DNA from: Anaerolineales bacterium | GTDB lineage: Bacteria > Chloroflexota > Anaerolineae > Anaerolineales > E44-bin32 | NCBI GenBank assembly: GCA_036397095.1 | Contig: DASWJQ010000195.1 | Location: 44,070 to 108,069, forward strand | DNA length: 64,000 nucleotides | Direction of reading: 5' to 3' | In this document: piece by piece, positions 19,768 through 63,804 of the stretch | Position numbering within the stretch: position 1 is the stretch's first letter | Layout: each line of letters begins with the position of its first letter | The notes under the pieces: generated by a model | Databases searched by the model: none | Seen by the model: only the letters and a program-made list of their open reading frames with translations | What the model was told of the DNA's origin: nothing | Made by a program: the position numbers and the translations under genes

Positions 19768-19768
19768 G

Positions 19769-23624: not shown

Positions 23625-23627
23625 CCC

Positions 23628-24296: not shown

Positions 24297-24354
24297 GTCC
24301 CCCTCACATGGGCCGAACGAGGTCTTCCTATATTAGATCAGACGATCTCAGATT

Positions 24355-47594: not shown

Positions 47595-47635
47595 AGCTCT
47601 CTCCTTACCGTCCCGACCGTTGAGTCGGAGGATTG

Positions 47636-47944
47636 TTAGTTGTCCGACGTCGGCCCGCGATCCATCGCTTCCGTGGCAAAGGGGGTGACGGTAGATGTCG
47701 GCTCCTGATGGCCCTCATCATGCTGCGCCGGTGCAAAGGATGGGGTGAAATCCGGCGGCAATGTCGGCAGCGGGGCCGACTTGGTAGCGGTCGGCATCAC
47801 GATGCTGACCTGGTAAGGCTGCTGCGTACCAAGGGCACCTCGCTGTGGTTCCGAGCTCTCGGCCAGCGCCGACTGGATCGTCCCGCCTATCAACACCAAA
47901 CACACGGCAATGAAAACCAGCAGCAGTATCTCCTTTACCTTCAT
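47636..47944 (-). CDS. Small signal-anchored Pro-rich protein
   Basis: 102 aa. N-terminal anchor ILLLVFIAVCLVLIGG. ATGA overlap with the stop of the rdhC-like gene. Confidence 0.45.
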   Translation of the reverse strand: MKVKEILLLVFIAVCLVLIGGTIQSALAESSEPQRGALGTQQPYQVSIVMPTATKSAPLPTLPPDFTPSFAPAQHDEGHQEPTSTVTPFATEAMDRGPTSDN

Positions 47945-49155
47945 GAACGCACCTTCTTGATGGTGGTATCTACAATGCGCCGGCCCTCTCCGATGTAGTC
48001 AACAATGGGGTCGATTGGACACAGGTAGTTGCAGAATGGCCGAAGCACAACCAGCGACGTCAACATGATGATCGCCAACAAGATCCACTGGGCGGTCCCA
48101 CCGGTGAAATCGAACAGGGTGCCAAATGGTTCGTAGCTGGCGGGTCCCGGCTGGCGCAGGGCCAGGCCAAGCAAGATGGCGCTCAAGGCCAGACCGCGCT
48201 GCAGCCACTGCAGCCGGCTGTGCCACTGGCGCGGCCGGAACAGTTTGGCCCCGCCGATTTTGCCCAACCCTTCTTGAACGGCGCCAAAGGGGCAGAACCA
48301 GGAGCAGTACGGATTCTTGCCCTGGGCCGTCGTCACGAACAGGAGACCGCCCAGCAGCAAGAACCAGTACAAATTGGAATGCCAGTCGGGCCAATAGCCC
48401 GACAGCAGGGAGATGAAGTGGGCGACAGTCAGCGGCTTGTTGTACAGAAAGCCAATGCCAATCACACCGCCAACCAGAGTCAACCGGCGGATCCACTTCT
48501 TGGCCTGCGGTTGGCGTGACCGGTGACCGAAGTAGGCGACGATGTATAGCGCCAGCAGCAACGCCTCGGGCGCACCAAACTGAATCGGCTCGACCGCGGC
48601 CGGGACTCGGGCCCCGATCGGCCCGGCGGCCAGGGCTCGCGCCTGTTCACGCACGGCGCGGGCGACAGCTTCTGAGCTGATGGTGGCGCCGGTTACCGCA
48701 TCGATATCCTGACCGAGCCGCAGCTCATTCGTGTAGTCCATGCCCAGGAACTGGCGGAAGAAGTCGGCCTCGAGCAAGCGGCGGAAGAAGCCGGGTGTTT
48801 CGCGGTGCTCAATGATCTCAACCCCGATGATGGCGCCGTCGGCATTGACGCCGACCAGCACCTCGATGGGTCCGGCATAGCCGGTCGCCGTTCCGGTGCC
48901 GGCATAGCCGATCAGCTGACCGGAGGTAGGGTTGCCCTGCTCGGCATAGCCGAAAAAGACGTCCCCGCGCTGTTCGATATGCGTGGCACCGGGCAACACA
49001 TTCGAAACGCTGGGGGCGATGTCGCTGCCGGCCTGCAGGTAGCCGAAGAGCCAGGCGGTCAGCAGGGCCACGCCTGCCACGATTGTCACGATCGTCTGGG
49101 TGCGTTTGTCTTTACGCCGGGCCCGGGGCCGCGCCGCCTGGCTCGCTGCCAGCAT
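47941..49155 (-). CDS. RdhC/NosR/NapH-like membrane flavoprotein (periplasmic FMN-binding domain + polytopic domain with two CX3CP motifs)
   Basis: 404 aa from the internal ATG. FMN_bind region with flavinylation-type motif DAVTGATIS. Membrane part with CSWFCPFG and CNYLCPID. No C-terminal ferredoxin domain. Confidence 0.7.
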   Translation of the reverse strand: MLAASQAARPRARRKDKRTQTIVTIVAGVALLTAWLFGYLQAGSDIAPSVSNVLPGATHIEQRGDVFFGYAEQGNPTSGQLIGYAGTGTATGYAGPIEVLVGVNADGAIIGVEIIEHRETPGFFRRLLEADFFRQFLGMDYTNELRLGQDIDAVTGATISSEAVARAVREQARALAAGPIGARVPAAVEPIQFGAPEALLLALYIVAYFGHRSRQPQAKKWIRRLTLVGGVIGIGFLYNKPLTVAHFISLLSGYWPDWHSNLYWFLLLGGLLFVTTAQGKNPYCSWFCPFGAVQEGLGKIGGAKLFRPRQWHSRLQWLQRGLALSAILLGLALRQPGPASYEPFGTLFDFTGGTAQWILLAIIMLTSLVVLRPFCNYLCPIDPIVDYIGEGRRIVDTTIKKVRS

Positions 49156-49232
49156 GTCTTTCGTTACCGTCACACCCCTACCTCGTTCAACCGCCTCTGC
49201 CACGTGAATTCCGGCCTCCCAATCCGATTCGA

Positions 49233-49466
49233 TCAGCGCTTGACGCCGCAAGTAGCGCAGCCACCTGCTGCCGTCGGCACGCAAGTGCCGCAACCGCCGC
49301 CGGCCAACGCCCGGCCGCTGCCAAATGCAGTGAACGTCGACATGACACGCGAAGTCTGATGGCCGGTGCACTGCGGACACGTCGCCCGAGACTCACGGTC
49401 GGCCATCGAACGCTGCAGCTCAAAGGTCACCCTGCAGTCCGGGCAAAAGTACTCGTAAATCGGCAT
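49233..49466 (-). CDS. FmdB-family zinc-ribbon protein
   Basis: 77 aa. MPIYEYFCPDCRVTFE...CPQCTG, then a Gly/Cys-rich tail. Confidence 0.7.
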   Translation of the reverse strand: MPIYEYFCPDCRVTFELQRSMADRESRATCPQCTGHQTSRVMSTFTAFGSGRALAGGGCGTCVPTAAGGCATCGVKR

Positions 49467-49638
49467 TGGCTACCTCGCTTGCCACCAAGGGTGCCTAGGG
49501 TCGGCCCGCTCGTGGGCTACCGGCTAGTACACGGCCGGGCGCCCAGCGTCATCAAGATAATCGTCCCGCCAACGTTCCATTAGTGCCGAAAATCACCATT
49601 CGGCTGGTCAGCTTGCCTCTCCAGACAGGTAAGCACCG

Positions 49639-50982
49639 CTACAGATCGGGCGCCAATTCGCCGATAAGTTGGCGCGCTCGCTCAGCCATGTCCTGCTGCC
49701 CAACCCGCTTGTAAAGCTCGGCTGCCATCCCGGCCGCCTGCCGCGCCAGCTCATCCTCGCCCAAATCCCGGTAGGTCAGCGCCAGCAGCACCTGCTGCTC
49801 AGCAACGATCTCGGGCTCATGCTCGGCTTCGAGTTTTTCGACGGCTAGCTCCCCGTAGCGGCGAGCCGCTTCCATTTGGCCTTGCTCGGCATACAGTGCA
49901 CCCAGTCGGCCCAGCGCCACCGTCATGCTGCGCGGGTTGTTTTGTTCCCGCGCCTCTTCGAGGGCTTCTTGGTAGGCCGCCTCACACTCGTCGAAGCGGC
50001 CGAGGTCGAAGTACAGTCGTCCCAACTGCATCATCAGCACCAGCTTCTTCATCCGGGGCCCGCGGCGCCGGACGTAGTCGAGTGACTCATGGAGCAGGAT
50101 GAGTGCTTCGTCATGGCGCCCCAGGTTGAGCAGCGCGGTAATCGCGTTCTCCCGCTGGATGGCGGCTTCGACGTGATCGCCGCGGCGCTCTGCCAGGCGC
50201 CGGGCCATTTGGCAGTGTTCGAGGTAATCCTCCAGCCGGCCGAGGCCGAGATCCACCTCGAGCAGTTCGCGCAGCACGTCCCACTGGCGCATTTCATCGC
50301 CGGCCGCCTGTGCCTGCGAGAACGCCGACTGCAGGTTGGCAGCCCCCGCTTCGTATTGACCCTGCCTCAACTGTGACTGAGCCAGACCCAACCGCAAGCG
50401 GACGATTTCCGCCGGTTCTGCCTCGGCGCCCCGTCCGTCAAGCGCCTGGACGAAGGCGGCCTGCGCCTTTTCATCCTGCCCGCCGGCCAGGAACAGCTCG
50501 CCCTTGTGCGCCAGCAGCCGGGCTTGGCCGGCACCGTCGGTCCGCTCGACCCCGGCCAGCAGTTCGTCGAGGGCAGTCTCGGCCTCGGGCAAGCGACCTA
50601 GCTCGCCGAGCGCCTTCGCCCGCACTAACTGAACGTCTTCCACCAATGCCGGCATGTTCTGCCTGGCGTTCTCAAGCGCCCGGTCGTAGCAAGTGAGGCC
50701 ATCCTGGCGCCGTTCGATGCGCGTCAACAGAGTCCCTTTTTGCATCAAATGTTTGACCGCCGCAGCGTGGTCGCCGGCCTGCTCGGCCTCGGCTACGGAC
50801 CGGTCCAGGGCAGCGATGGCGTTCTCCAGGCGGGCTTGCTCTTCTTCCAGCGCAGCTAGGTCGGCAAGGGCCGCCTGGCGCTCATACGGGTTGTTCTGGC
50901 GTTCGGCCGCCGCCAGCCGCTCGTGGGCGGCCTGTACGCGCATGCCTTGCTGCACCAGATCATTCAAAAGTTCAGCGTCCAT
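49639..50982 (-). CDS. Tetratricopeptide-repeat protein
   Basis: 447 aa. Repeated 34-aa helical A/L/E-rich units throughout. Confidence 0.65.
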   Translation of the reverse strand: MDAELLNDLVQQGMRVQAAHERLAAAERQNNPYERQAALADLAALEEEQARLENAIAALDRSVAEAEQAGDHAAAVKHLMQKGTLLTRIERRQDGLTCYDRALENARQNMPALVEDVQLVRAKALGELGRLPEAETALDELLAGVERTDGAGQARLLAHKGELFLAGGQDEKAQAAFVQALDGRGAEAEPAEIVRLRLGLAQSQLRQGQYEAGAANLQSAFSQAQAAGDEMRQWDVLRELLEVDLGLGRLEDYLEHCQMARRLAERRGDHVEAAIQRENAITALLNLGRHDEALILLHESLDYVRRRGPRMKKLVLMMQLGRLYFDLGRFDECEAAYQEALEEAREQNNPRSMTVALGRLGALYAEQGQMEAARRYGELAVEKLEAEHEPEIVAEQQVLLALTYRDLGEDELARQAAGMAAELYKRVGQQDMAERARQLIGELAPDL

Positions 50983-51021
50983 CGACTCTCTCCCGATACT
51001 TCAACGCCCAACCGCCACCGG

Positions 51022-51681
51022 TCAGACCTCGATCTCCTCGTTACCCAACATGCCGGCCTTGTAAGCCAATTCAACCAACTCGGCCCGATGCTCCAGATCG
51101 AGTTTCTGCATCAGGCGCGAACGGTACGTGTCCACCGTCTTGCCGCTGATGGCCAGCATGTTGCCAATTTCACGGCTGCTGTAGCCGCGGGCGGTCCAGC
51201 GCATGACCTCGCGCTCGCGGTCCGATAGCGTGCTCAAGAGCACCTGCGCGTTGCCGGCCGTGCGGATCGACCGCACCAGGACCGTCGTCGCCGATGGGTG
51301 CAAGTAGGCTTTGCCGCTGTTGACGGTGCGAATTGCCCGCAGTAAATCGGTGTGCGCCGACGACTTGGGCACATAGCCATCGGCGCCGGACTCGAGCGCC
51401 TTGGTCACGATCTCGTTGCCCTTGTGCATCGACAGCACAATCACACCAATGTCAGGGTGGTCCTGCCGGATGCAGCGGATGGCATCGAATGCCGTCATAC
51501 CAGGCATGCCCAAATCCATCACGACAATGTCGGGGGATGCCGCCGGCACGAGCTGCAGCGCTTCGTCGGCCGTCTCTGCCTGTCCCACAACCTGGATGTC
51601 GTCCTGCTCCTCAAGCAAGGCGCATAGGCCGGCGCGCAATACGGCATGGTCGTCGACCAGCAGCACTTTGATGGACGTCAT
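51022..51681 (-). CDS. NarL/FixJ-type response regulator (REC + LuxR HTH)
   Basis: 219 aa. VLLVDDH...DIVVMDLGMPGM receiver. C-terminal LSDREREVMRWTARGYSSREIGNMLAISGKTVDTYRSRLMQKL. Confidence 0.9.
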   Translation of the reverse strand: MTSIKVLLVDDHAVLRAGLCALLEEQDDIQVVGQAETADEALQLVPAASPDIVVMDLGMPGMTAFDAIRCIRQDHPDIGVIVLSMHKGNEIVTKALESGADGYVPKSSAHTDLLRAIRTVNSGKAYLHPSATTVLVRSIRTAGNAQVLLSTLSDREREVMRWTARGYSSREIGNMLAISGKTVDTYRSRLMQKLDLEHRAELVELAYKAGMLGNEEIEV

Positions 51682-53408
51682 GCCGTCACCTCCATGCGCG
51701 GGATGCGCACTGTCAAATGCGTCCCCTGGCCCGGCCCCGTCCGAACTACGAAGCTGCCGCCCAGCCGTTCGGCTCGCTCCTGGATGCTGGCCAGGCCGAT
51801 GTGGGCGACGCCTTCCACAACCAGATGATCGGGGTCAAAGCCGGTCCCGTCATCTTCAATCTCCAGCAGCAGTTCGTCGTCCAGCAATTGGACCGACAGG
51901 CTGGTTTGTTGGGCGCACGCGTGGCGGGCGATATTGGTCAGGGCCTCTTGCGCAATGCGGTAGAGCGTGATTTCCAGGGTTGGATCGAGCCGCTCACCGT
52001 CCAGGTTTGAGTCAAATACGACCAGCATTCCATTCTGGCCGAGCATGTCGGTTAGCAAGTTGCGCAGAGTGGGTCCCAAACCCAACTGCTCCAGATCTGG
52101 AGGCCGGAGTAAGTGTGACAGGCTGCGGATGTGCTCGATGGCATCCGAAAGTTCGACACACAGATCCGAGATGCCGGCCTGAAGGACGCTGATGTCGTCC
52201 TTGGCCGAAAGCGACGTCAGGCGCAACAGCACACTGGTCAATTCCTGACCGGCGCCGTCGTGCAGCTCGCTTGAGATTACGGCGCGCTCATCCTCTTGGG
52301 CCGTGACCAGCGAGTGCAGCAAGGCCTCCATGCCGGCCTCCTTGTCGCGCAGGTCGGCATGCAGCCGGGCGTTGGCCACCGCCTCCGAGACCTGAACCCC
52401 CAGGGCGCCGATCAGTTCAATTTCCTCGTCGCGCGCCGGGGCCTCCTTGGACCACAACAGGTTGAGGACCCCAAGATCGCGGCCCCGGGCCCGCAGCGGG
52501 ATAGACAGGTGTGGTGGATGATCGCCCCCTGGTTGAGCTGCGGCCAGTGCCAGCCGTTTGCATTCCCGCTGCACGGGCTCGTTCCATTCACCCTCTTCTA
52601 GCAGGGCACGCTGACAACCACAGAAAGCGTCCGGCGACGACCACGGTTCGGCCTCGACGACGCCCGGCGGCGCCACGGCACAGGCCAAGTAGAAGCGGCC
52701 GCTCTCGGGATCGGTCAGGTAGATCCAACCGCTCTCCAGGCCGGTGACATCCAGCGTGCTGTTGAGGGCGGCCTCCAGCACAATGGCCAGATCGAGCCCA
52801 CGGCCAACTGAATCTGACACATGACAGACAGCGCCCAATCGCCGGTTGCTGCGTTCCAATTCACGCTGGCTGTTGACCAGTTCATCGACCATCCGGTTGA
52901 AAGCCTCGGCCACCTGCCCGATTTCATCGCCGGAATAGACCGGGGCGCGTTCATCCAGGTCCCCCCCCCGAACCAGGTCGGCCACCCGCTTGAGTTCGAG
53001 AATGGGGGTGGTCAACAAGAGCATCAACGCCGAGGTGAGAAAGAGCGAAAGGCCAGCCGCCAGGACCGTGACCACAAGCACCGATCGGCCACCGGCTTGC
53101 ATGGCCATGGCAACGCGTTCCGAATCGAGCAACCACGAGAGCCAATCGCTGAGCGAACCGCGCACCCAGAAGTTGACGGCAATTCCGAAAATGAGCACGG
53201 GCAGCAGGACCATGCCGCCGATCTTGACCCTAACCGGCACGCCCAACGCCCATGACTGGATGCCCCGCGGCGCTCGGCGGATCCGAGCAATCCACCAGGC
53301 GCGTACATGCCGTTGTGGAAGCAATCGCACGGATTTTCCTTTCGGGGAATTCCCTACAGACGGCATGCTTTCAGTATCTTTGGGCGCACCCGCGACGATT
53401 AGTGACAT
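51678..53408 (-). CDS. Sensor histidine kinase (TM-HAMP-GAF-HisKA_3-HATPase)
   Basis: 576 aa ORF. H-box SSELHDGAGQELT, N/G boxes near the C-terminus. Overlaps the RR start by 4 nt. N-terminal start uncertain. Confidence 0.8.
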   Translation of the reverse strand: MSLIVAGAPKDTESMPSVGNSPKGKSVRLLPQRHVRAWWIARIRRAPRGIQSWALGVPVRVKIGGMVLLPVLIFGIAVNFWVRGSLSDWLSWLLDSERVAMAMQAGGRSVLVVTVLAAGLSLFLTSALMLLLTTPILELKRVADLVRGGDLDERAPVYSGDEIGQVAEAFNRMVDELVNSQRELERSNRRLGAVCHVSDSVGRGLDLAIVLEAALNSTLDVTGLESGWIYLTDPESGRFYLACAVAPPGVVEAEPWSSPDAFCGCQRALLEEGEWNEPVQRECKRLALAAAQPGGDHPPHLSIPLRARGRDLGVLNLLWSKEAPARDEEIELIGALGVQVSEAVANARLHADLRDKEAGMEALLHSLVTAQEDERAVISSELHDGAGQELTSVLLRLTSLSAKDDISVLQAGISDLCVELSDAIEHIRSLSHLLRPPDLEQLGLGPTLRNLLTDMLGQNGMLVVFDSNLDGERLDPTLEITLYRIAQEALTNIARHACAQQTSLSVQLLDDELLLEIEDDGTGFDPDHLVVEGVAHIGLASIQERAERLGGSFVVRTGPGQGTHLTVRIPRMEVTA

Positions 53409-53455
53409 GCATCACTAAGTGGGCGGCGCTTCGGTACCTTTTGTCCGTACAGCGA

Positions 53456-53481
53456 GCGGCCCGGGGTTTCCCCCGGGCCGC
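53456..53481 (-). terminator. 11-bp perfect GC stem-loop GCGGCCCGGGG-tttc-CCCCGGGCCGC downstream of rdhB-1
   Basis: Read directly, 30 nt after the stop at 53511. No clear U-tract on the minus strand, so function is uncertain. Confidence 0.4.
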
Positions 53482-53510
53482 GTTCGGTTCGTTTCGATCG
53501 CTGGCGCCGG

Positions 53511-53735
53511 TCAGGCGCTCAGGATTCGGCGGCGGACGAAGTAGACAATCGCACCGCCCAGCAGCAGGATGATCCCCACCACCCACAGGATGCTGGCGAC
53601 GCGGGGCTCAAGTTCGGCACTGCTGGCCATGGCGTTTTGCAGGGTGAAGACCACCGCAAACGCCCAGGCGATCCAGGCCAGCCACTCGTACCACGGGCGG
53701 CGAGCGACTTCGAGTTTGTAGGTTTTGTCAGTCAT
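53511..53735 (-). CDS. rdhB: Putative RdhB-type membrane anchor (pair 1)
   Basis: 74 aa from ATG 53735, 2 nt after the rdhA-1 stop, with GGAGG inside the rdhA 3' end. Two TM helices with an acidic loop AELE. Confidence 0.5.
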   Translation of the reverse strand: MTDKTYKLEVARRPWYEWLAWIAWAFAVVFTLQNAMASSAELEPRVASILWVVGIILLLGGAIVYFVRRRILSA

Positions 53736-53737
53736 TG

Positions 53738-55135
53738 TTAGGCCTCCGATACCGGCCGGGTGCTGTCGACGCCCAGCTCGGGCAGATCCAGGTACCACCA
53801 CTCTTCGTTGTCCTTCTGGGCGCCGTAGCCGAAGGCGTCATCCATGCTGCGGAAGAAGCCGTCCATGGCGGGCACGGTGGCAATCCCAGCCTTGACCCAG
53901 CTGTGCACCCATGCCTGGTCCTTCTTGGCGAACGGGCACACGGCGAAGCAGATGCCGCAGTTGGTGGCGGCGCCTTCGCGCCAGTAGGTCATGCACTTGA
54001 CGGCGTCGTCGAACCAGGCCTTATGGCCCGGATTGTTGAACCCACCGACGATGTCCCAGGTTGGTTCGGTCTCAAAGCTCAGGGCACCACTCGGGCAAGC
54101 TTCCGCGCACTTCTTGCAGTGCTTGCAGAACTCGAGGATGCCGGCGTTGATTGGCTTGTCGGTGGCGACCGGCAGGTCGGTCAGCATCTTGAAGACGCGC
54201 ACCATCGGGCCAAACTCGGGCGAGATCAGCCGATTGAAGCGCGATAGTTCTCCCAGGCCCGCCATGATGCCGAGCGCCGGCGAGATCGCCAAGGCGTTGG
54301 TGCTTGACTCGCCGAGCGCCTGATAGCCCAGGCCCCGCAGGAACTCCTGCGTCGAGTTCTGGATCTGGCGGCCGCGCAAGTAGGTGAGGCCCGTCGTCTG
54401 TGAGGCCAGCATGGTCGGGGCACGCTTGAGCGTCTCCTCCGACATCTGGACCAGGTAGAGGATGACGTACTTGCACTTGTTGGGGATGTAGCGGGCCTCT
54501 TCGGTCTCGGAGGCGACTTGCTCATCGGTGAAGATGAGTTCCTTGCCATCCGGATCGTGCGAGTAGATCAGCTTCCGAGTGTTGTCGTCCAGCTCCAGGA
54601 AGGCAACCCGGGCGGCGCCGTAGTGGCGCATGGCGGCGCGGATGATGCGGGAAGCGTCCTCCGGCGAGCCGGTCCACTTGGGCACACCGCGATCTTCAGG
54701 CGTATCGGTCTCCTGCGGACCCATGAAACTCATACCCAGCCGCTGATCCTGGCCGGCGTCGAGCGCGTAATCCTTGAGTGTGTAGCCCGGCACGTTGTTT
54801 CTGATGCGCTCTGAGGTCAGTTCCCTTTGGACCAGACCCAGCGCTTCCGCTCGATCCTCGCCGACGTAGCTGGCGAAACCCGGGCCGCGCACGGTGCCGG
54901 TGCGTTCGTTGTAGCGCTCGACCTTGGACCAGTCGACCTCCGTGGTCGGCTCATCGACGGTCTTGACCCACCAGGCTCGCTGGGGCCGTCCGGCCGGATC
55001 GGTGAACTTCTTGGCACCGTAGGCCGTCTTCTTGCCCGTGCCGGCCAGCTTGGGAGCCGCCAGCCCGGCGCCAGCCCCGAGACCTGCCAAACGCAGGAAG
55101 TCTCGGCGACTGACACGTGTCTCTGTTTCACTCAT
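53738..55135 (-). CDS. rdhA: Reductive dehalogenase homologue RdhA-1
   Basis: 465 aa. AAGGAGG SD. Tat signal SRRDFLRLAGLGAGAG. C-terminal CKHCKKCAEACP (CX2CX2CX3CP) and C...CGICFAVCP (CX2CX3CP). Confidence 0.85.
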   Translation of the reverse strand: MSETETRVSRRDFLRLAGLGAGAGLAAPKLAGTGKKTAYGAKKFTDPAGRPQRAWWVKTVDEPTTEVDWSKVERYNERTGTVRGPGFASYVGEDRAEALGLVQRELTSERIRNNVPGYTLKDYALDAGQDQRLGMSFMGPQETDTPEDRGVPKWTGSPEDASRIIRAAMRHYGAARVAFLELDDNTRKLIYSHDPDGKELIFTDEQVASETEEARYIPNKCKYVILYLVQMSEETLKRAPTMLASQTTGLTYLRGRQIQNSTQEFLRGLGYQALGESSTNALAISPALGIMAGLGELSRFNRLISPEFGPMVRVFKMLTDLPVATDKPINAGILEFCKHCKKCAEACPSGALSFETEPTWDIVGGFNNPGHKAWFDDAVKCMTYWREGAATNCGICFAVCPFAKKDQAWVHSWVKAGIATVPAMDGFFRSMDDAFGYGAQKDNEEWWYLDLPELGVDSTRPVSEA

Positions 55136-55653: not shown

Positions 55654-57210
55654 ATGAGGAAAGGAAAGCAAACCGTGGCAGATTCAAAAGTCTCGAGACG
55701 AGACTTCATCAAAGGGCTGGGCGCCGCCGGCGCCGTGGCTTCGGTAGCCGCAGTTTTCACCGAAGCTTCGGCCGCCGCCAAGGCCCCCAGCGCCTACGCC
55801 GGCTGGGAGAACCGCCGGGGTACGGAATACTTTGATCGAAGTCGATTCGAAGTCGCCAAGCCCGAGAGCTACCAGGTTGTCGGTACCCTCAAGCGCCGTG
55901 ACACACGCGTTTACGATTCGCGCGCCCGCCTCGGCGGGCACCAGCGCGGCGAGGACGCCGTCACCAAGTACGACGCCGGCGACCCGTTCTGGGCCGACTA
56001 CTATGCCAAGAATCCGGCCGACGGCGATGGATTGCCGCAACCGGACACTGACCGCATGCTGCGTGATGAGTGGTACCCACCGCAGCAGGCCATCGTCGAA
56101 GCCGGCGCCGAGCGCCGGACCGAGTTCGCCACCACCGGCGAGGGCTTCCTGGCCGCCGCCTGGTCGATCGCCTACCAGGACTTCTCCTACCCGCGGCCGA
56201 GCTCCCCGCCTGAAGAGGCGGACTGGGAGGAAGTCAGCACAGTGCGCGGTGAGTTCAAATCGCCCGAGCTGGCCTCCAAGTTCATCAAGGGGATCGCAGC
56301 CAATTTCGGGGCGACTCTGTGCCGCATCACCGAAGCCCAACCGGCCTGGTTCTATGCCAATGGCCTGCGCGGCGTCGAAGAGGATGTGGCCATCGGGGAC
56401 GAATTCGAAATCCGGCCGTGGTGGAAGTACGCCATCGTCGTCACCCGGCCGATGGAGTTCGACGCCCTGGGCGCCGATCCGAACTTCGGCAACTCGTACT
56501 CGGGCTACAACCCCAGCACCTATGTGGCGACCCACGTCGCCCGCAGCATCAAGGCGCTGGGCTATCCTTCTCGCGTCGAGGCCCCGATGGCCGGCTACGA
56601 AATGTTCGTCGTGCCGTTCGCCGTCGACGCCGGCTTTGGCGAGCTGGCCCGCACCTGTAACTGCGTGTCACCCGATATGGGCGGCAATTTCCGCCAGTCC
56701 GTCGTGCTGACCAACCTGCCGCTGGCCATGGACAAGCCGATCAACGCCGGCGTTGCCGACTTCTGCAAGAAGTGCAAGATCTGCTCGGAGTACTGCTGGA
56801 CCGGCTCGATCTCGATGGACGACGAGCCCAACTGGGAAGAGGCCGGCGTGCTGCGCTGGGACGTCAACGGCTTCACCTGCAGCATGGGCTGGAACCAGGT
56901 CTCCGGCGGCGACAGTTATCCCGAGAACGCACCGGGTGGCGGCCTGCGCGGCTGCCGCGCCTGCATCTCGGTTTGCCCGTGGTACCGCCGCACCAATTGG
57001 CTGCACAACAGTGTGCGCTCGTTCGTGGCCAACGACCCGACCGGTCTGGCCGACGACTTCTCGCTTCAGTTTGAGCGGGCGGTCTACGAACGACGCGATC
57101 CGTCCCTGTGGCTGGCGCCGGAGATGAAGGGCGTGCACGACGAGCCGGATTGGCTCCGCACGGCCGACTTCATCAAGAGCTTCAGCGACACACCGCTAGG
57201 GGAGGCATAA
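55654..57210 (+). CDS. rdhA: Reductive dehalogenase homologue RdhA-2
   Basis: About 518 aa (ATG 55654; alternatives 55627 or GTG 55675). Tat signal SRRDFIKGLGAAGA. CKKCKICSEYCW and CRACISVCPW Fe-S motifs. Confidence 0.85.
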   Translation: MRKGKQTVADSKVSRRDFIKGLGAAGAVASVAAVFTEASAAAKAPSAYAGWENRRGTEYFDRSRFEVAKPESYQVVGTLKRRDTRVYDSRARLGGHQRGEDAVTKYDAGDPFWADYYAKNPADGDGLPQPDTDRMLRDEWYPPQQAIVEAGAERRTEFATTGEGFLAAAWSIAYQDFSYPRPSSPPEEADWEEVSTVRGEFKSPELASKFIKGIAANFGATLCRITEAQPAWFYANGLRGVEEDVAIGDEFEIRPWWKYAIVVTRPMEFDALGADPNFGNSYSGYNPSTYVATHVARSIKALGYPSRVEAPMAGYEMFVVPFAVDAGFGELARTCNCVSPDMGGNFRQSVVLTNLPLAMDKPINAGVADFCKKCKICSEYCWTGSISMDDEPNWEEAGVLRWDVNGFTCSMGWNQVSGGDSYPENAPGGGLRGCRACISVCPWYRRTNWLHNSVRSFVANDPTGLADDFSLQFERAVYERRDPSLWLAPEMKGVHDEPDWLRTADFIKSFSDTPLGEA

Positions 57211-57211
57211 C

Positions 57212-57478
57212 ATGACCGCAGGTTTGATCGCCGGCATCGGCCTGACCCTGGCCTTCGTCGGTTTCTACGCATGGGCCCAGGACAAGGGCTGGACCATCAA
57301 GTGGTGGCAGTGGACACTGCTCATCCTGGCGTCCGGCCTATTGTTGCTGGGCGTCGGCGCACTGGGCACCTCGCTAGCCGAGGGCACGGCCGCCGCCGGC
57401 TGGCTGCTGTTCGGCATGGCGGCCCTCGTGGCCGTGGTCATGGGCTTCGCCGCCCTGCGTCCAGTGCGAGCAAGCTAA
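57212..57478 (+). CDS. rdhB: Putative RdhB-type membrane anchor (pair 2)
   Basis: 88 aa, starts 1 nt after the rdhA-2 stop. Three TM helices. The loop motif SLAEGT is shared with pair 3 (LLAEGA). Confidence 0.6.
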   Translation: MTAGLIAGIGLTLAFVGFYAWAQDKGWTIKWWQWTLLILASGLLLLGVGALGTSLAEGTAAAGWLLFGMAALVAVVMGFAALRPVRAS

Positions 57479-57515
57479 CCGACCAACCGCAAGACGACCC
57501 TCCATCTGGAACCAG

Positions 57516-57550
57516 AGACCCGGGCGCCTCACGCGCCCGGGTCTTGCTTT
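57516..57550 (+). terminator. Rho-independent terminator after rdhAB-2
   Basis: AGACCCGGGCG-cctcacg-CGCCCGGGTCT followed by TGCTTTCGG. Confidence 0.7.
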
Positions 57551-57629
57551 CGGCCCTGCCAGCGCGTGCCATTTGTCACTCGGAAGCGGAGGGCCCGTCA
57601 GCTAGACTGCCCACCAGAGGTATCAATCA

Positions 57630-59252
57630 ATGGCCAAATGGATCCTGAACAGCAGCCGTGCCCAGAAGGCGCTTAGCCGGGGAACATCGATCCTGCGCAG
57701 CGCCGTTGCCCCGACCTTGGGGCCGATCGGCCGTACAGTCCTGATGGACCGCCGTTGGGCCGGCACCAGCGTGGTCAGCGATGGCTTCACGATCAACCGC
57801 GAGCTGGAGCTGTGGGATCCGTTCGCCGATATGGCCATCCGCTTCCTGGAAGACGCCTCCGAGAAAGTACGATCGGCCTGCGGCGATGGCACCACCACAA
57901 CCGTCTTGCTGGCCGAGGCGCTTATTCGGGCCTGCCAGCCGCTGCTCGCCAGTGGCGCCGACCCGATGGCCCTGAGCCGTGCGCTGGCCCGCGGCGCTGC
58001 CTTGGCCGTTGACGAACTACGGGACATGTCTTGCCCTGTGGCGGACGCCGGCCAATTGGCGGCGGTGGCCAGCCTGGCGGCCAAGGATGCAGAGCTAGGA
58101 AGGGTTGTCGGAGAATTGGTGTGGGACCTCGGGGCCGATGGCGCATTTCTGGCGCTCGAATCCCAGGGGCGAACGGTCGAGCATGAAGTCATCGAAGGGT
58201 TCCGTTTTGACCGCGGCGCCATCAGTCCGGCCTTCCTCACCGATCCGGTCAAGGTCGAAGCCGTCTTGGAGAACCCTTACCTGCTGTTGACCGCTGAAAA
58301 GCTCGAGCGGGTTGACGATATCCTGCCGGCCTTGGAGCGCATTCTGCCCGAGGCCCATACGCTGGTGGTGGTCGCCCAAGATGTGACCGGCGAGGCATTG
58401 GCCGGCCTGGCGATGAACAAGGAGCGCGGCAACTTGGAGGTGCTGGCGGTCAAAGCGCCTGGGCTGGGTGGCCGCATGGAAGAGCAACTTGAGGAGTTGG
58501 CAGCGGCGACCGGCGCGACCGTGCTGCCGAATTATGAAACGGGTCGTACGTTGGCCGGCATCACGATCGAGGATTTGGGCCGCGCCGACCGGGTTGTTGC
58601 CAACCGACAAATGACGACGGTGTTTGGCGGGAGGGCCGACCCCAAGCGCGTCGCTGAGCGAATGGCCATTCTGCGAAATGGTGCCGCCGAGGCGCAGACC
58701 GACAAGTACCGGCGTGAATTAACCGAGCGCATTGGCGCCATCCTCGGCAAGACCGCCGTCCTTAAAGTAGGTGGTCTCAGCCAGTTGGAAGTCAAAGAGA
58801 AGGTGGTTCGCGTTCGCAACGCGGTGGCGGCGGCCCAAGCGGCTCTGCGGGGCGGACTGCTGCCCGGCGGCGGCGCCGCCCTTGCGCGGGTTGGGCTGGC
58901 CGTTGGCTCGGCCCCGGCCGCCGATGACCTGACCCGCATTGGCTTTCGGGCCGTCCAGCGGGCGCTCGAGGCGCCCCTGCTCAGCCTGGCGCGCAATGCA
59001 GGTGAGCACGGCCCGCTGGTGCTGGCGGCCGTGCGGCAGGCGCCGGCCGGCAGCACCTATGATGCGTTGACCGGCCAGGTTGGCCCTGCCTCAGAATCAG
59101 GGATCCTCGATCCAATGGAAATGGTGGTTGCTGCCCTGCAGCGGTCCGTGAGCGTGGCGGCAGCCCTGCTGACGGTGGACACGGTCATTGTCTCTCCACC
59201 GGAGCCTGGTGTGGCCGACGAACGACCGGACGTCAGCGCACGTTACGAGTAG
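57630..59252 (+). CDS. Divergent GroEL/Cpn60 paralogue, no GroES partner
   Basis: 540 aa. LGPIGRTV, CGDGTTTTVLLA, LLPGGGAAL. No GGM tail. The residue aligned to E. coli D398 is Asn (codon 58818-58820). No groES and no CIRCE-like operator upstream. Confidence 0.85.
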   Translation: MAKWILNSSRAQKALSRGTSILRSAVAPTLGPIGRTVLMDRRWAGTSVVSDGFTINRELELWDPFADMAIRFLEDASEKVRSACGDGTTTTVLLAEALIRACQPLLASGADPMALSRALARGAALAVDELRDMSCPVADAGQLAAVASLAAKDAELGRVVGELVWDLGADGAFLALESQGRTVEHEVIEGFRFDRGAISPAFLTDPVKVEAVLENPYLLLTAEKLERVDDILPALERILPEAHTLVVVAQDVTGEALAGLAMNKERGNLEVLAVKAPGLGGRMEEQLEELAAATGATVLPNYETGRTLAGITIEDLGRADRVVANRQMTTVFGGRADPKRVAERMAILRNGAAEAQTDKYRRELTERIGAILGKTAVLKVGGLSQLEVKEKVVRVRNAVAAAQAALRGGLLPGGGAALARVGLAVGSAPAADDLTRIGFRAVQRALEAPLLSLARNAGEHGPLVLAAVRQAPAGSTYDALTGQVGPASESGILDPMEMVVAALQRSVSVAAALLTVDTVIVSPPEPGVADERPDVSARYE

Positions 59253-59712: not shown

Positions 59713-61131
59713 TCAGGCGTTCTTGATGTGGATGAAGTTGTCCTTCTTCCAGTATTCGCGCGAGTCCTCTTCGGTCGCATACTGACTGGCATCATCCAGC
59801 GCCAAGATGGCTTGATCCGCTGCGCCGCTGCGCATGCCAATAAGTGATCGAGTGGCGTCGTGCAGCCAACCTTCAGGCTTATTGAAAGGGCAAACTCGAA
59901 TGCAGTTGTGGCAGCTCATGCCGCTGGTAGACCAGACCATGTGGCAGGCCACGACGTCTACCGGCCACTTGTACACGCCCGGGTTGTTGGAGATATTGCG
60001 GGCATCATAGGTTCGCTGATTTTGACCTTTGATGATCCCACCCGCCGGGCAGGTATCGGCGCATTTGCCGCAAATCTCGCAGAACTCTGTGGCGCCGAAC
60101 GAGATCGGGCTGTCCGGCGTCAAGGGCATATCCGTAATGACCTTGCCCAATCGGACGCGAGGGCCGTACTTAGGCGTGATCAACATGCCGTTGCGGCCAA
60201 GTTCACCCAACCCCGCATCCACGGCAATCGGAATGCTCAATCCAGTACAGTTGCCGCTTGGGATGGCATGATAGCCCATGCCTCGGATGAATTCCGCCAG
60301 GCTGGCAGCAGTGAAGGCCGTCTTGGAGTAGCCATTGCCCGTGGCCGCGTTGGCTGGACCACCGATCGGATACTGGTATCCGTCGTAGTCCATCTCAAAC
60401 GCCATCGAGATGACGTACTTCATCGAGCGCGGGATGACCAGGGTCTTGTCCGCACGCTCCTCAGGGACATCGACATCCTCGAACAGGATCGGGGCCACGA
60501 TATTCGGCGGATCACTGTAGCCCTTTGTATCGCGATGGGAGTAAATCCACCGTTCATCAAGTTCGGCAATGCCGGCCATCGAGGCGCCATAGAACAGCGC
60601 CGCCTTCTTGACGATATCGGTCACTTCGCGCGGTGTGTAGCCGGCCATATCCCACGGGCCCATTTCGGTCAAGCGGGCACGCGACAGAAAAGACCCGGGC
60701 AAAGGCTGCCAGGAGTACAGACCACCATTGGATCCGCCGACCGCACCTGCACCGTTTCCTTGAACAGTAGCCACCGTCCAGGAAGCTGTGTAGAAGGCGT
60801 AATCCATCCGATTGAAGCCGGGATCATTGGCCATGATGTGATCGAGGGGGACCTTGGCATAGGGTGCCTCGGCATCGACGATCTCTTTATCCCATACGGC
60901 CCGGCTGAATACCTCGTTGTGTTGGTTAAACCTCCGGTAGATCGAATCGTCGACTTGGTAGGGCGGATCGGCTGCAGCGTGACGCCTGATCAGGAAACCA
61001 CCGAAGGCCTCCGACGTCACTAGCTCATCGGACCCGATCCGACCGATCACTGTAACAGCCGGCAGTGTCATGCCAGCCAAACCGAGCGATTTGACGAAAT
61101 CGCGGCGAGTTAGATCCTTCGTGGTAGACAT
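59713..61131 (-). CDS. rdhA: Reductive dehalogenase homologue RdhA-3
   Basis: 472 aa. GGGAGG SD. Tat signal TRRDFVKSLGLAGMTL. CEICGKCADTCP and CHNCIRVCPF motifs. Confidence 0.85.
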   Translation of the reverse strand: MSTTKDLTRRDFVKSLGLAGMTLPAVTVIGRIGSDELVTSEAFGGFLIRRHAAADPPYQVDDSIYRRFNQHNEVFSRAVWDKEIVDAEAPYAKVPLDHIMANDPGFNRMDYAFYTASWTVATVQGNGAGAVGGSNGGLYSWQPLPGSFLSRARLTEMGPWDMAGYTPREVTDIVKKAALFYGASMAGIAELDERWIYSHRDTKGYSDPPNIVAPILFEDVDVPEERADKTLVIPRSMKYVISMAFEMDYDGYQYPIGGPANAATGNGYSKTAFTAASLAEFIRGMGYHAIPSGNCTGLSIPIAVDAGLGELGRNGMLITPKYGPRVRLGKVITDMPLTPDSPISFGATEFCEICGKCADTCPAGGIIKGQNQRTYDARNISNNPGVYKWPVDVVACHMVWSTSGMSCHNCIRVCPFNKPEGWLHDATRSLIGMRSGAADQAILALDDASQYATEEDSREYWKKDNFIHIKNA

Positions 61132-61142
61132 TTAATACCTCC

Positions 61143-61430
61143 CTACGCCGCAGCCGTGACTGGCTTGGCGAAAACATAGCGGCCGAGCAGCACGCCCCAG
61201 ATGACGGCGATCAGGCCGAGCAGGATGCCCGACACGAGCGCCGCCTGGGGCGCACCTTCGGCCAGCAGGGTTGCGACGACTTCGATCACGAACACGCCGA
61301 ACAGCAGGCCGAGCACAGTCAGGACCCAGGCCCAGACCGGGACGACCAGCCGGCGGCGCCGCGCCAGGTCGAACAGCCCGAGCAGGGCTGCCGTCGCCAG
61401 CGCTCCGATGAGCAAATGCACGAGTAACAC
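61143..61430 (-). CDS. rdhB: Putative RdhB-type membrane anchor (pair 3, upstream of rdhA-3)
   Basis: 95 aa. GTG start with GGAGG 7 nt upstream. Three TM helices. Loop LLAEGA. Confidence 0.6.
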   Translation of the reverse strand: MLLVHLLIGALATAALLGLFDLARRRRLVVPVWAWVLTVLGLLFGVFVIEVVATLLAEGAPQAALVSGILLGLIAVIWGVLLGRYVFAKPVTAAA

Positions 61431-61688
61431 GGTGGCCTCCTTCGAAAGCCGATAGCTTGCATCCGGTATTAGTTCCGGATTTCACAAGTGCCCCTATTGT
61501 CCCATGTTCTGGCCGAAATTCTTGTCCGCAACTGGCGTACAAAAACCATGACATTCATCACCAACCGAGAATCAAGCCGGGCGGCAGTATGGCCGCCCAG
61601 TTTGTGCTGGAGTATTCAACCGGTCGTCTTCTGGGGTGCAATTGCCTGACAGCCTGCGTGGAGGATCGTGCATGCGCAGACAAACCGG

Positions 61689-61729
61689 CCTTCCCGGAAG
61701 TCCAGCTTCGGGACTTCCGGGAAGTCCGA
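61689..61729. repeat. Second copy of the ACTTCCsGGAAGT palindrome pair (14-bp hairpin CTTCCCGGAAGTCC-agcttcg-GGACTTCCGGGAAG)
   Basis: 61714-61729 is identical to 59650-59665 (ACTTCCGGGAAGTCCG). Lies between the cobU stop and the rdhB-3 promoter region. Confidence 0.8.
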
Positions 61730-61769
61730 TCTTCGGTGTCGGTAGCCTGGGATCTAGCTCGGCGATGGG

Positions 61770-62330
61770 CTAGGCAGACCGCTCGCCCTTCAACCACATG
61801 GGCAAGCCAGCCACCAGCAGCACCACTTCGTCGGCGGCCGCCGCCAGCCGCTGGTTTGCCCGACCCAGGGCGTCGCGGTAGGCCCGGCCCAGGGGATAGG
61901 CCGGCACCAAACCCTGGCCGACTTCGTTTGACACGACCAGCCAATCGGCGTCCGACTCGCCGGCCAACGCCACCAGGTCCGCGATTTCTTGCAGCAATTC
62001 GGATTCAGCCCGCTGGTGCGCGGCCGGATCATCGACGTCGCCGGCGGCAAACAGGTTGTTGGCTAGCAACGTCAGACAGTCGAGTAACAGGGTGTCGTAG
62101 ACGCCATCGGCGGCGGCGATCGCCGCTGCCAGCGCGGTCGGCGCCTCCAGGGTCCGCCAGGCCGCCGGCCGCTTGGCTTGGTGGGCGGCAATGCGAGCCG
62201 CCATCTCGTCGTCAAGCGCCTGGGCGGTGGCCACGTACAGCACGCTGGCTGCGCCGGCGGCACGCGCCTCGGCGTAACTGCTCTTGCCGCTGCGGGCCCC
62301 TCCCAGGATCAGCGTCAGCCGGCCGGCCAT
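61770..62330 (-). CDS. cobU: Adenosylcobinamide kinase / adenosylcobinamide-phosphate guanylyltransferase
   Basis: 186 aa. P-loop [15 protein letters not shown]. Confidence 0.85.
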
Positions 62331-63076
62331 GGCACCCCCGCCGCCTGCAGCGCCCCGACCGAGCTCTCAAAGTCGGCCTGGCCAAAAACCTCCAGCGTGA
62401 GAACACCTTGGTAGTCATGATCCAGCAGCGGCCGCAGCACCCGGGCAAGCTCCTTCGAATCGGCGTGGCTCAGCGATTGGTGGTCGCGGCTGCCCAGCCC
62501 GTGCAAGTGGATAACCCGCGCCCGCGCCAGGTGGCGCTCGAGGAATGGAACCGGGTCGTGCCCATCGACCCACAGATGGCCAATGTCCAGGCAGCGGCTA
62601 ACCGGCACCCGTTCAAGCACCGGGTCAATGAAATCCAGCGGGTATCCTTCCAGATTCTCGACGGCCAGCAATTCGGGGGCCCCCGCCCAGGCGGCGGTCA
62701 GCTCCAGCGAGCAGGCGGCCTGGTCGATCCAAGCTTCGTAATCCGTCATGTGCTTGCCTTCAAGATGCAGCACATAAGCCCATGGTGCCAGCGCTTTGGT
62801 GCGCTCGATCACCCGTTGGGCCTTCTCCAACGAGGCGTGACCGGTCGAGCCATCGTCCCCCATGCGCAGGTCGAGCGGCAAGTGAACCGTGTAGCTTAGG
62901 TCGTGCTCTGACGCCAACGCCGCCAGTTCGCCAACCACGGCTGTCGACGGCAGGTTGTTCTGACCGTCGTCAACTTCGAACAGGACCAACTCAACGTCGT
63001 CGACACGCGGCGCCAGGTACTGCACGTTGGGCAGGATGTCGGCCGGCAAGATGTAGGATGTGGTTCCCAGGCGCAC
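62315..63076 (-). CDS. Xylose-isomerase-like TIM-barrel (AP endonuclease 2 family) protein, candidate CbiR-type cobamide remodelling enzyme
   Basis: 253 aa from GTG 63076 (GGGGAGG upstream, after the cobS stop). The longer ORF-track start overlaps cobS. Family call from general pattern and its position between cobS and cobU. Confidence 0.45.
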
Positions 63077-63081
63077 CGGGG

Positions 63082-63804
63082 TCAGCCTCCCCAGCGCAGG
63101 GAAAAGCCCACCAGCACAGCAACCTCCACCAGCTCGATCGAGGCGCCCAACACATCCCCCGTTTGACCCCCGAGCCGGGCCATCGCCAGCCGGCCAAGGA
63201 GCCAAGTGGTCGACAGCCCCAGCACGAGCGCGACCACTCCCTGCCACCCCAGCCAGGCACAGGCAGCCAGCAACGGCAGCCCCCACAGCAGGCTAGGCCA
63301 GCCGAGTTCGGCGTGCAGCCGACCACCAAGACCCCCGTCCCTGGCTGGTTTGGCCCGGGCCAACAGCAGCACGGTCCAGCGGGCAATCGTCGGCGCCAGC
63401 AGCAGCCCGGTGCTGGCCGCCAAGGAGCCGATCGCCAGGGTTTTGACCAGCAGGACCAGGATCAAACTGGCGACACCAAAAGCGCCAACATGCACATCCG
63501 ACAGGATTTCAAGCCGGCGGGCGGGCGTGGCCGAGGCCAACAGCCCATCCCCGCAATCGGCCACCCCGTCCAGGTGCAAGCCGCCGGTCAGCCCGACCCA
63601 CAGCGCAAGGGTCAGCCCCGCCGTCAGCGCGGCCGGCACAACTATTCCCAACAGCCCGTGCGCCGCCCATAGACACAGGCCGAGGGCCAGCCCGACCGCC
63701 GGATACCAGATCGCCGCCCGGCCCAGTTGGCCCGGCTCGAGTTCGCCCTTGGGCCGGACCGGCAGGATCGTCAGGAAGCCAAGCGCCCAGCGCAGCCCGG
63801 TCAC
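63082..63804 (-). CDS. cobS: Adenosylcobinamide-GDP ribazoletransferase (cobalamin synthase)
   Basis: 240 aa polytopic. [17 protein letters not shown]-terminus and the [10 protein letters not shown] motif. Confidence 0.85.

Follow-up and report, generated by a model that had tools for sequence, protein, structure and literature searches.

A GroEL paralogue with Asn at the catalytic Asp398 position, inherited in a fixed module with an atypical reductive dehalogenase of Anaerolineales, is a candidate client-dedicated chaperonin

Introduction

Two GroEL-type genes of the Desulfitobacterium reductive dehalogenase (rdh) cluster cprTKZEBACD, cprD and cprE (rdhD and rdhE), have been predicted to encode molecular chaperones, a function that has never been proven (PMC3306737, PMC9888536, PMC5928378); cprC is co-transcribed with cprD (PMC5928378). 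Here we describe a chaperonin gene, groEL*, in a stretch of 64,000 nucleotides from an Anaerolineales bacterium (contig DASWJQ010000195.1, positions 44,070 to 108,069; this whole stretch is called the window), where it lies behind the genes of an atypical reductive dehalogenase, rdhA*, and of its membrane anchor, rdhB*. Like RdhD and RdhE, GroEL* is a GroEL homologue encoded inside an rdh cluster, in some loci beside an rdhC-type gene, and is predicted to mature a corrinoid- and Fe-S-containing RdhA that is exported through twin-arginine translocation (the Tat pathway). The two systems differ in host, RdhD and RdhE belonging to Firmicutes (Desulfitobacterium and Dehalobacter, clusters cprTKZEBACD and rdhZECD) and GroEL* to Chloroflexota/Anaerolineales, and in gene order, which is B-A-C-D and Z-E in Firmicutes and A-B-GroEL here. 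The Firmicutes clusters hold two GroEL genes, whereas the module of groEL* holds one and is without rdhT, rdhK and rdhZ.

Functional reductive dehalogenases are notoriously hard to make heterologously, as they need corrinoid and Fe-S clusters before Tat export; for co-expression, a chaperonin whose gene is tied to that of one RdhA suggests itself as a candidate. Redox enzyme maturation proteins (REMPs) such as TorD and NarJ, as well as RdhT/PceT, are dedicated maturation chaperones of Tat substrates. The role that we propose for GroEL* resembles theirs, in that each holds one Tat redox enzyme until its cofactors are inserted and is encoded beside its client. REMPs, however, are small, ATP-independent and all-helical, and RdhT is a homologue of trigger factor, whereas GroEL* is a 540-aa, putatively ATP-binding chaperonin.

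Stand-alone groEL genes are common, 834 of 5,658 (14.7%), and groEL2 of Myxococcus xanthus strictly needs a distant groES (PMC5406781), while bacteria with multiple chaperonins always keep one Gly-Met-tailed copy (PMC11978752). GroEL* shares with stand-alone paralogues (Mycobacterium tuberculosis Cpn60.1 with its His-rich tail, M. xanthus GroEL2, rhizobial and cyanobacterial copies) the lack of an adjacent groES, a C-terminus other than Gly-Met and presumed specialised clients (PMC5904260, PMC11978752, PMC5406781). Unlike GroEL*, these have not been described without D398, have no ER(L/P)DMSAKYE tail and do not sit in a three-gene module with a single candidate client. On the biochemical side, Escherichia coli GroEL D398A binds ATP normally and retains about 3% of the steady-state ATPase activity, yet still binds GroES, encapsulates and folds substrate (PMC3326522); the same paper describes ATP hydrolysis in the cis ring as the timer that permits release. 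GroEL* is altered at the same catalytic position with the remaining pocket intact; unlike D398A, it is natural and long fixed, carries Asn rather than Ala, and has additional changes in the apical domain, hinge 2, cavity and tail.

It is thus already known that GroEL-type genes occur in rdh clusters and that specialised, stand-alone GroEL paralogues without a Gly-Gly-Met (GGM) tail exist (PMC5904260). What appears to be new is a distinct Chloroflexota clade, apparently of independent origin, with strict synteny to one candidate client, a clade-wide substitution of the catalytic Asp, a new tail and an extant intermediate.

Results and Discussion

A fixed module of rdhA*, rdhB* and groEL*

We find that groEL* is inherited as part of a fixed module, rdhA*-rdhB-hairpin-groEL* (coordinates in Table 1). 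The order rdhA*-rdhB-groEL*, on one strand, is present at 11 of 11 informative loci whose proteins are down to 42% identical; the full module was seen in the window, L002, L003, L005, L007, L008, L010 and L017, and rdhB with a partial rdhA in L006 and L009. Replicates of the module from the same population come from JGI (L014/L015) and ENA (L018-21). Two JGI contigs are collinear with the window at 99.4-99.8% identity, and four ENA contigs, out of 16 encoding RdhA*, repeat the gene order. Because these independent contigs repeat it, the rdh/groEL* arrangement is not an assembly artefact.

The association also has a sharp boundary. The RdhA* family counts about nine clusters (identity of at least 58%), a size as small as that of the GroEL* clade; its 58% member, at L017, has the chaperonin, and the next RdhA (44%, L016) lies in a tatA-rdhA-rdhB arrangement that is followed by an unrelated gene, with no GroEL. 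RdhA* was found in one of 185,579 species-representative genomes, an Anaerolineales metagenome-assembled genome (MAG) with a 4.3-kb contig, and a metagenome scan with the RdhA* profile returned two contigs, both of the window's own population. The idea of a chaperonin dedicated to RdhA, put forward as plausible in an earlier note made from this DNA, is strengthened by the constant gene order and by the absence of a chaperonin from the nearest outgroup rdhA.

The sequence of RdhA* marks it as a true homologue of reductive dehalogenases, with a Tat signal (SRRDFIKGLGAAG), two Fe-S motifs and Pfam matches to TAT_signal and Fer4. Its profile aligns residues 239-457 with PceA (4UQU) at E=1e-25; on TIGR02486 the protein scores 146 bits against a cut-off of 160. 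Orthologues are 511-513 aa long and 58-74% identical, and the protein is 100% identical to NCBI HEX9798424.1, likewise called at 511 aa; given these lengths and the NCBI call, the GTG at 55675 is most likely the start codon. The protein has a mass of 56.5 kDa and a net charge of about -18, the two ordinary RdhAs of the island having -6 and -9. Orthologues of rdhB* encode 88-90 aa and are annotated as PF27193 VcrB. The divergent N-terminal ~240 aa of RdhA* (55675-56400) are highly conserved among orthologues and go unseen by the Pfam Dehalogenase model and by the RdhAs in PDB, and some orthologues are annotated 'epoxyqueuosine reductase' by JGI.

Could the chaperonin serve another component of the island, such as the polytopic RdhC-like flavoprotein and flavinylation by ApbE, membrane insertion of RdhB, or corrinoid handling (CobU/CobS/CobT, transporter)? 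An RdhC-like gene, a small open reading frame (ORF), apbE, a HisKA_3/GerE pair and CobU/CobS do recur near the module, at variable positions. CobU/CobS lie directly 3' of groEL* in L005, and in two deep branches, L006 and the P0015 contig, the genes rdhC-orf-apbE come directly after groEL* on its own strand, an arrangement that parallels the cprC-cprD co-transcription of Desulfitobacterium (PMC5928378). In the window and most crown loci, however, the rdhC-like gene is elsewhere or on the opposite strand, and RdhC, ApbE and Cob genes shift position or strand or fall off the contig; the sole invariable neighbours of groEL* are RdhA* and RdhB*. Moreover, the association follows the RdhA* subfamily, whereas many ordinary rdh clusters come with RdhC and ApbE yet lack a GroEL, examples being the second rdhAB pair of L002 and that of the window, and membrane proteins are poor clients of the GroEL cavity. 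We regard service to such a component as quite improbable.

Fold and nucleotide site of GroEL*

The GroEL* protein matches exactly NCBI HEX9798422.1 / HEX9798515.1 ('MAG TPA: chaperonin GroEL [Anaerolineales bacterium]'), and both NCBI and JGI annotate it plainly as 'chaperonin GroEL'. Pfam Cpn60_TCP1 (PF00118) spans residues 22-522 (E=1.2e-56), HMMER matches to GroELs in PDB reach E=1e-100 to 1e-111 over residues ~5-530, and a pairwise MAFFT alignment with the authentic E. coli groL product (NC_000913) gives 36% identity with hardly any gaps. On the NCBIfam equivalog TIGR02348 the protein scores 427.8 bits, under the cut-off of 582.1, and it passes the looser GroEL subfamily models PRK12849 (454 vs 352) and PRK00013 (436 vs 397). 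TLGP (30-33), D52, GDGTTT (86-91; D87, T89-91), GGG (414-416) and D495 are kept, and the nucleotide motifs are present in 16 of 16 clade members with minor T/S and G/A variation, such as GDGTT(T/S). An AlphaFold2 model built from a 101-sequence alignment (mean predicted local distance difference test score, pLDDT, 91.4; predicted template modelling score, pTM, 0.85) superposes on GroES-bound GroEL subunits at template modelling (TM) scores of 0.80-0.82. GroEL* is thus a full-length GroEL homologue, predicted to fold well, with a nucleotide-binding site that is intact apart from D398; its description in the earlier note as a 540-aa GroEL paralogue with equatorial motifs is borne out by ORF, Pfam, HMMER and MAFFT alignment alike.

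Asn in place of the catalytic Asp398

E. coli E397/D398 correspond to R396/N397 in GroEL*, with the segment KEKVVRVRNAV lying opposite, and three independent alignments (HMMER against PDB GroELs, MAFFT against E. coli, and multiple alignments) agree on this register. In a 122-sequence alignment of 16 clade members and 106 others, on which the residue tallies below are also based, Asn occupies position 398 in 16/16 clade members, against Asp in 105/106 other GroELs. The newly found deep member P0124 has Asn as well, so that all 17 crown members are N398, and Asp stands at this position in 116 of 117 Dehalococcoidia-type GroELs. This distribution is far beyond chance. The assignment of D398N in the earlier note is thus correct and applies to the whole clade; no alignment placed an Asp at the catalytic position.

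Two further expectations attached to D398N did not hold. It is not unique: Asn stands at 398 in seven of the 128 single-domain representatives that the clade profile ranks highest, and six of these seven are unrelated, divergent GroEL lineages; those that bear names are all annotated just 'chaperonin GroEL'. Nor does it form the functional core, as the rdh-linked sister chaperonin at L017 retains D398; because of this, the rdh role would be older than the substitution. Its recurrence hints that slow GroELs form a general class, so far unrecognised because its members are all annotated plainly as 'chaperonin GroEL'. The six lineages (P0173, P0182, P0201, P0211, P0240 and P0262) are at most 35% identical to GroEL*; one is a paralogue of the gut bacterium Agathobaculum desmolans (WP_281693384.1), which has Glu at D52 as well.

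Slow hydrolysis by GroEL* is a reasonable expectation by analogy with E. coli D398A. Since the rest of the pocket is strictly conserved, ATP binding is most likely retained, and GroEL* would most likely still bind ATP but hydrolyse it slowly, prolonging the dwell time of its client.

The clade and the order of events

A homologue search returned 15 protein clusters at 45-99% identity to GroEL*; identity then falls sharply to that of canonical Chloroflexota GroELs, which level off at about 40%. The clade comprises about 18 lineages, all metagenomic, and those that are named are Anaerolineales. A HMMER profile of the clade, run exhaustively against 1.84 billion representatives, scored just three single-domain members of the clade (P0008, P0014 and P0124) higher than the plateau of canonical GroELs; the family is very rare. 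Other high-scoring representatives among P0121-P0127 were rejected as clade members, being tandem or fused GroELs with two-domain summed scores. Four of them (P0121, P0122, P0125 and P0126) are ~830-1080 aa long with two tandem GroEL-like units each and may be true chaperonin fusions or products of gene calling; in P0122, Thr-Asn occupies 397/398 of unit one, whereas unit two retains Asp.

The chaperonin in the same slot at L017 has the clade tail (GEKLDLSAKYD) together with D283G, S358T, D361Y and E363R, yet keeps D398, Y199, Y203, V264 and G375. Its identity to ordinary Dehalococcoidia GroELs (Dehalococcoides, Dehalogenimonas) is 62-67%, and the tail and the D283G/S358T/D361Y/E363R changes are absent from all 117 of its Dehalococcoidia-type relatives. 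In a neighbour-joining tree (60 bootstraps) the N398 crown is monophyletic at 100% and L017 is its sister at 93%. The sequences point to the following history: GroEL* arose from a duplicated Dehalococcoidia-type housekeeping GroEL that was recruited behind rdhA*B*, and the new tail and the loss of three acidic residues of the cavity wall (D283G, D361Y, E363R) came first. Given that the sister L017 has the linkage, the tail and the cavity changes yet keeps D398, D398N was a single later event, never reverted, that came with the apical changes (Y199/Y203 lost, T261G, V264M) and the loss of Gly375; several allosteric or inter-ring residues were relaxed at this later step, with faster evolution afterwards. 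Because the clade roots within Dehalococcoidia-type GroELs, its recruitment looks independent of that of RdhD/RdhE, which we compared by their descriptions only.

On a different account, GroEL* would be an ordinary second housekeeping or stress GroEL that happens to lie near rdh genes, with D398N and the tail reflecting neutral drift or decay. Its plain annotation, an evolution faster than that of its neighbours, the abundance of duplicate and stand-alone groELs and the presence of D398N in unrelated paralogues all speak for this account. It is nevertheless largely refuted by synteny and conservation, and we consider it very improbable: ORFs are intact in ~18 lineages, 73 alignment columns do not vary, N397 never changes and the 10-residue tail is kept down to 39-45% identity, and to this are added the identical gene order and the sharp boundary of the association at the RdhA* clade. 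The sub-equivalog score and the lack of a CIRCE (controlling inverted repeat of chaperone expression) operator in the window are further points against it, as is the missing GGM tail, which housekeeping copies always keep (PMC11978752).

Tail, apical face, hinge and cavity

GroEL* ends in ...PGVADERPDVSARYE, without Gly-Met repeats, so that the missing Gly-Met tail of the earlier note is confirmed, with ERPDVSARYE in its place. Every clade member ends in ER(L/P)D(M/V)SA(K/R)(Y/F)E, with D534 and A537 invariant, and 90 of the 106 comparison GroELs have a G/M-rich tail. The last seven residues (534-540) are predicted to be disordered (AlphaFold2 pLDDT below 50).

Several other residues set the clade apart. 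V264M and T261G are each found in 16/16 clade members and in none of the others, D361Y in 15/16, and D283G and E363R in 14/16, again in none of the others; Gly375 is lost in 16/16 clade members and in 1/106 others, and V264M and the loss of Gly375 extend to all 17 crown members. The clade has further lost Y203 (15/16), Y199 (13/16), K34 (14/16) and E409 (15/16), and R13 is Gln in 12/16. We take Y199, Y203 and V264 to belong to the apical face that binds substrate and GroES, G192 and G375 to hinge 2, and D283, D361 and E363 to the acidic residues that line the closed cavity. Of the apical residues of GroEL*, F204, L234, L237 and L259 are kept while Y199A, Y203A, V263A and V264M are changed, and the GroES-binding groove is partly kept (L234, L237, L259, N265, R268). 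R13, R197-E386 and E409-R501 are presumably allosteric contacts, and R452 and E461 inter-ring contacts; the latter two are L and H in GroEL* and vary across the clade.

These losses bring up a reading in which GroEL* is an ATP-independent, or nearly ATP-independent, holdase or scaffold that does not cycle and is perhaps a single ring or a lower oligomer like the M. tuberculosis Cpn60s. Such a holdase may keep pre-RdhA* or its Tat signal tethered close to a membrane complex made up of RdhB, RdhC and Tat, taking the role that trigger-factor-like RdhT has in Firmicutes. It would accommodate the loss of D398, of Gly375 throughout the clade and mostly of K34, R13 and E409, as well as the variable R197-E386 and R452/E461 contacts, and no rdhT-like gene was seen in any locus examined. 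Lower-oligomer paralogues with non-GGM tails are also known (PMC5904260, PMC10952152). But TLGP, D52, GDGTT(T/S), GGG and D495 are strictly kept across members that are 45% identical, and because the pocket except for D398 is strictly conserved, ATP binding would seem to be still under selection. The full three-domain architecture is modelled with high confidence, and GroEL D398A still encapsulates substrate (PMC3326522); on balance a holdase seems unlikely.

Spacer, groES and regulation

The GC-rich hairpin between rdhB* and groEL* is followed by UUGCUUUC, and a 61-nt stretch folds at -33.5 kcal/mol. A hairpin with a T-rich stretch is found at the same position in 9/9 aligned rdhB-groEL* spacers (137-193 nt) and also in L017; its arms vary yet stay complementary, with compensatory changes at 6 of 12 consensus pairs. 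A strict terminator scan did not call the hairpin at 57515-57553, just four of its eight tail bases being T. At L017 some 25 nt separate the end of the hairpin from the start codon. Beyond the hairpin a TGACA/TGTCA-type motif is conserved in most crown spacers (L002, L003, L005, L008, L009, L010); it could be the site of a regulator, for example the GerE-type response regulator of the island, or a -35-like element. Scanning of the rdhB-groEL* spacer revealed no sigma-70-like promoter, and no canonical -10 element lies 16-18 nt from TTGTCAC. The earlier note had placed a terminator here and concluded that groEL* has its own promoter: the hairpin is real and conserved, but the promoter finds no support in the scan or in the L017 spacing, and by the layout of the spacer read-through or attenuation would be at least as likely.

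Within the 64-kb window, the absence of both groES and CIRCE that had been stated for this locus is upheld: no GroES-like sequence was found (tblastn with E. coli GroES, best E=2.8), no second GroEL and no CIRCE match with up to three mismatches. No GroES-like gene occurs in any of 20 related loci either. That GroEL* works independently of a co-chaperonin, as had been supposed, does not follow. Stand-alone groELs are common and the GroES groove is partly kept, and since M. xanthus groEL2 depends on a distant groES, independence is not inferable from the lack of a neighbouring one. A canonical groESL is expected elsewhere in the genome by analogy, because multi-chaperonin bacteria always retain one Gly-Met-tailed copy.

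A proposed role for GroEL* and its weak points

We propose that GroEL* is a client-dedicated, slow-cycling group I maturation chaperonin for pre-RdhA*, a reading drawn from sequence comparison and the D398A analogy to which we assign a probability of roughly 0.55. It would be the functional counterpart, in Anaerolineales, of RdhD/RdhE of Firmicutes, devoted to the unusually conserved pair RdhA*/RdhB*, and the presence of genes for corrinoid salvage and uptake in the island is in favour of this reading. The client would be the Tat precursor of RdhA* (~56 kDa), bound or encapsulated by GroEL* while a corrinoid and two [4Fe-4S] clusters are inserted in the cytoplasm before Tat export. The GroEL cavity has a limit of roughly 60 kDa, into which the 56.5-kDa pre-RdhA* fits. 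ATP binding would still drive the conformational switch, with hydrolysis slow as in E. coli D398A; because hydrolysis is the timer that ends encapsulation, the client would be held much longer, giving time for cofactor insertion and keeping it from aggregating or being exported too early. Both the tail and the changed wall of the cavity would be tuned to the acidic RdhA* client, whose acidity at least agrees with a cavity that has lost three acidic residues in each subunit. GroES, if used, would be supplied by the canonical groESL expected elsewhere in the genome, and the hairpin after rdhB may lower the groEL*:rdhAB transcript ratio, through partial termination or stabilisation of the upstream mRNA.

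A bolder version, possible but doubtful in our view, makes GroEL* a trap-like chaperonin that binds ATP, closes on pre-RdhA* and, through very slow hydrolysis, forms a long-lived maturation chamber or checkpoint for the insertion of corrinoid and Fe-S clusters, gating the hand-over to Tat. The disordered tail and the de-acidified wall would then be specific for client or cofactor, and D398N would be a recurrent route, taken independently by at least six other lineages, from housekeeping chaperonins to slow assembly factors with a single client.

Several observations weigh against a slow-cycling chaperonin for RdhA*. L017 fills the presumed same role with D398 in place, which means that the rdh role can do without slow hydrolysis. 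Asn at 398 could keep more activity than Ala, with D52 intact, and no paper on GroEL D398N turned up in our literature search. The variability of R452, E461, R197, R13 and E409 makes a classic double-ring cycle uncertain. The charge of the whole GroEL* protein ranges from -3 to -31 across the clade without a trend, so that charge-matching rests on the three cavity positions. GroEL* is also the fastest evolving member of the module, with a mean pairwise identity of 54% against 67% for RdhA* and 62% for RdhB*; between L005 and L010, RdhA* is 82% and RdhB* 83% identical, GroEL* just 51%. Instead of tight co-adaptation, fast evolution and such incongruent pairs could reflect a relaxation of constraint or the shuffling of modules. 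Overall, the divergences of RdhA* and GroEL* correlate (Spearman 0.61), and between the window and L005 RdhA* is 64% and GroEL* 69% identical; the incongruence suggests that modules have recombined or that rates are strongly heterogeneous. Compared with L014/L015, groEL* of the window has 2-5 synonymous and 2-4 non-synonymous differences, too few for a ratio of non-synonymous to synonymous rates (dN/dS).

Whichever way these points fall, the clade is a natural experiment, with a candidate client, an intermediate (L017) that keeps D398 and a crown in which timer, face, hinge 2, cavity and tail are changed. It makes the tuning of dwell time and cavity chemistry to a substrate directly testable.

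The organohalide-respiration island

On the basis of its gene content, the region from 46.5 to 63.8 kb of the window is an organohalide-respiration island with three rdhAB pairs (Table 1). The collinear contigs continue with CobT, a CbiA-type amidase and a FecCD/ABC transporter of corrinoid type.

Table 1. Features of the module and the surrounding island (window positions)
Feature	Position	Strand	Description
rdhA*	55675..57210	+	511 aa from GTG 55675; longest ORF from ATG 55627; atypical reductive dehalogenase catalytic subunit
rdhB*	57212..57478	+	88-aa membrane anchor, VcrB family; begins 1 nt past rdhA* stop
GC-rich hairpin and U-rich tail	57515..57553	+	13-bp stem 57515-57545; terminator/attenuator-like, between rdhB* and groEL*
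TTGTCAC motif	57573..57579	+	GTGACAA on other strand; ~25 nt past hairpin; alignment consensus ...TGACA.TC.GCC
Shine-Dalgarno-like AGAGG	57616..57620	+	9 nt 5' of ATG, read from sequence
groEL*	57630..59252	+	ATG start, 540 aa; divergent group I chaperonin paralogue
Catalytic-position codon AAC	58818..58820	+	Asn397 (E. coli Asp398), by alignments
C-terminal motif ERPDVSARYE	59220..59249	+	clade consensus ER[L/P]D[M/V]SA[K/R][Y/F]E; in place of Gly-Met tail
Island, upstream part	46560..55135	-	Pfam, NCBIfam matches
ApbE flavin transferase	46560-47594	-	Pfam/NCBIfam
RdhC-like FMN_bind/Fer4_5 membrane protein	47941-49380	-	Pfam/NCBIfam
TPR protein	49639-50982	-	Pfam/NCBIfam
GerE response regulator	51022-51681	-	Pfam/NCBIfam
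HAMP-GAF-HisKA_3 kinase	51678-53408	-	Pfam/NCBIfam
rdhB1/rdhA1	53511-55135	-	Pfam/NCBIfam
Island, downstream part	59713..63804	-	Pfam, NCBIfam matches
rdhB3-rdhA3	59713-61430	-	Pfam/NCBIfam
CobU	61770-62330	-	Pfam/NCBIfam
AP_endonuc_2/TIM-barrel protein	62315-63286	-	Pfam/NCBIfam
CobS	63082-63804	-	Pfam/NCBIfam

Docking of the acidic C-terminus of GroEL* on the TPR protein (49639-50982), by analogy with EEVD-TPR pairs, was considered and rejected, as the TPR gene is absent from the loci of relatives. A 62-aa ORF beside groEL* (59405-59593, minus strand) was likewise set aside; it is conserved in the same population only and is unrelated to the 62-aa gene of L017.

The first 25,858 nucleotides of the window (1-25858) form a perfect palindrome without a spacer, in which 1-12929 is complementary to 12930-25858 at 100%, and the deposited 113,996-bp NCBI contig carries symmetric duplicate accessions for GroEL* (HEX9798422/HEX9798515) and RdhA* (HEX9798424/HEX9798513). 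Given the palindrome and these duplicates, the whole public contig appears to be a fold-back assembly artefact.

Among the smaller genes of the island, an ORF of 82-102 aa without a Pfam match regularly lies between the RdhC-like gene and apbE (L002 1428-1688, L003 2487-2735, L006 3286-3579, L018 1962-2270), its counterpart in the window falling between 47594 and 47941. Just 5' of the RdhC-like gene there is often a Zn_ribbon_8 gene of 77-81 aa. At the left edge of the island is an IS110-family transposase (Transposase_20, 44548-45702, plus strand), which also bounds the collinear ENA contigs; because the same transposase bounds them, the island may be mobile.

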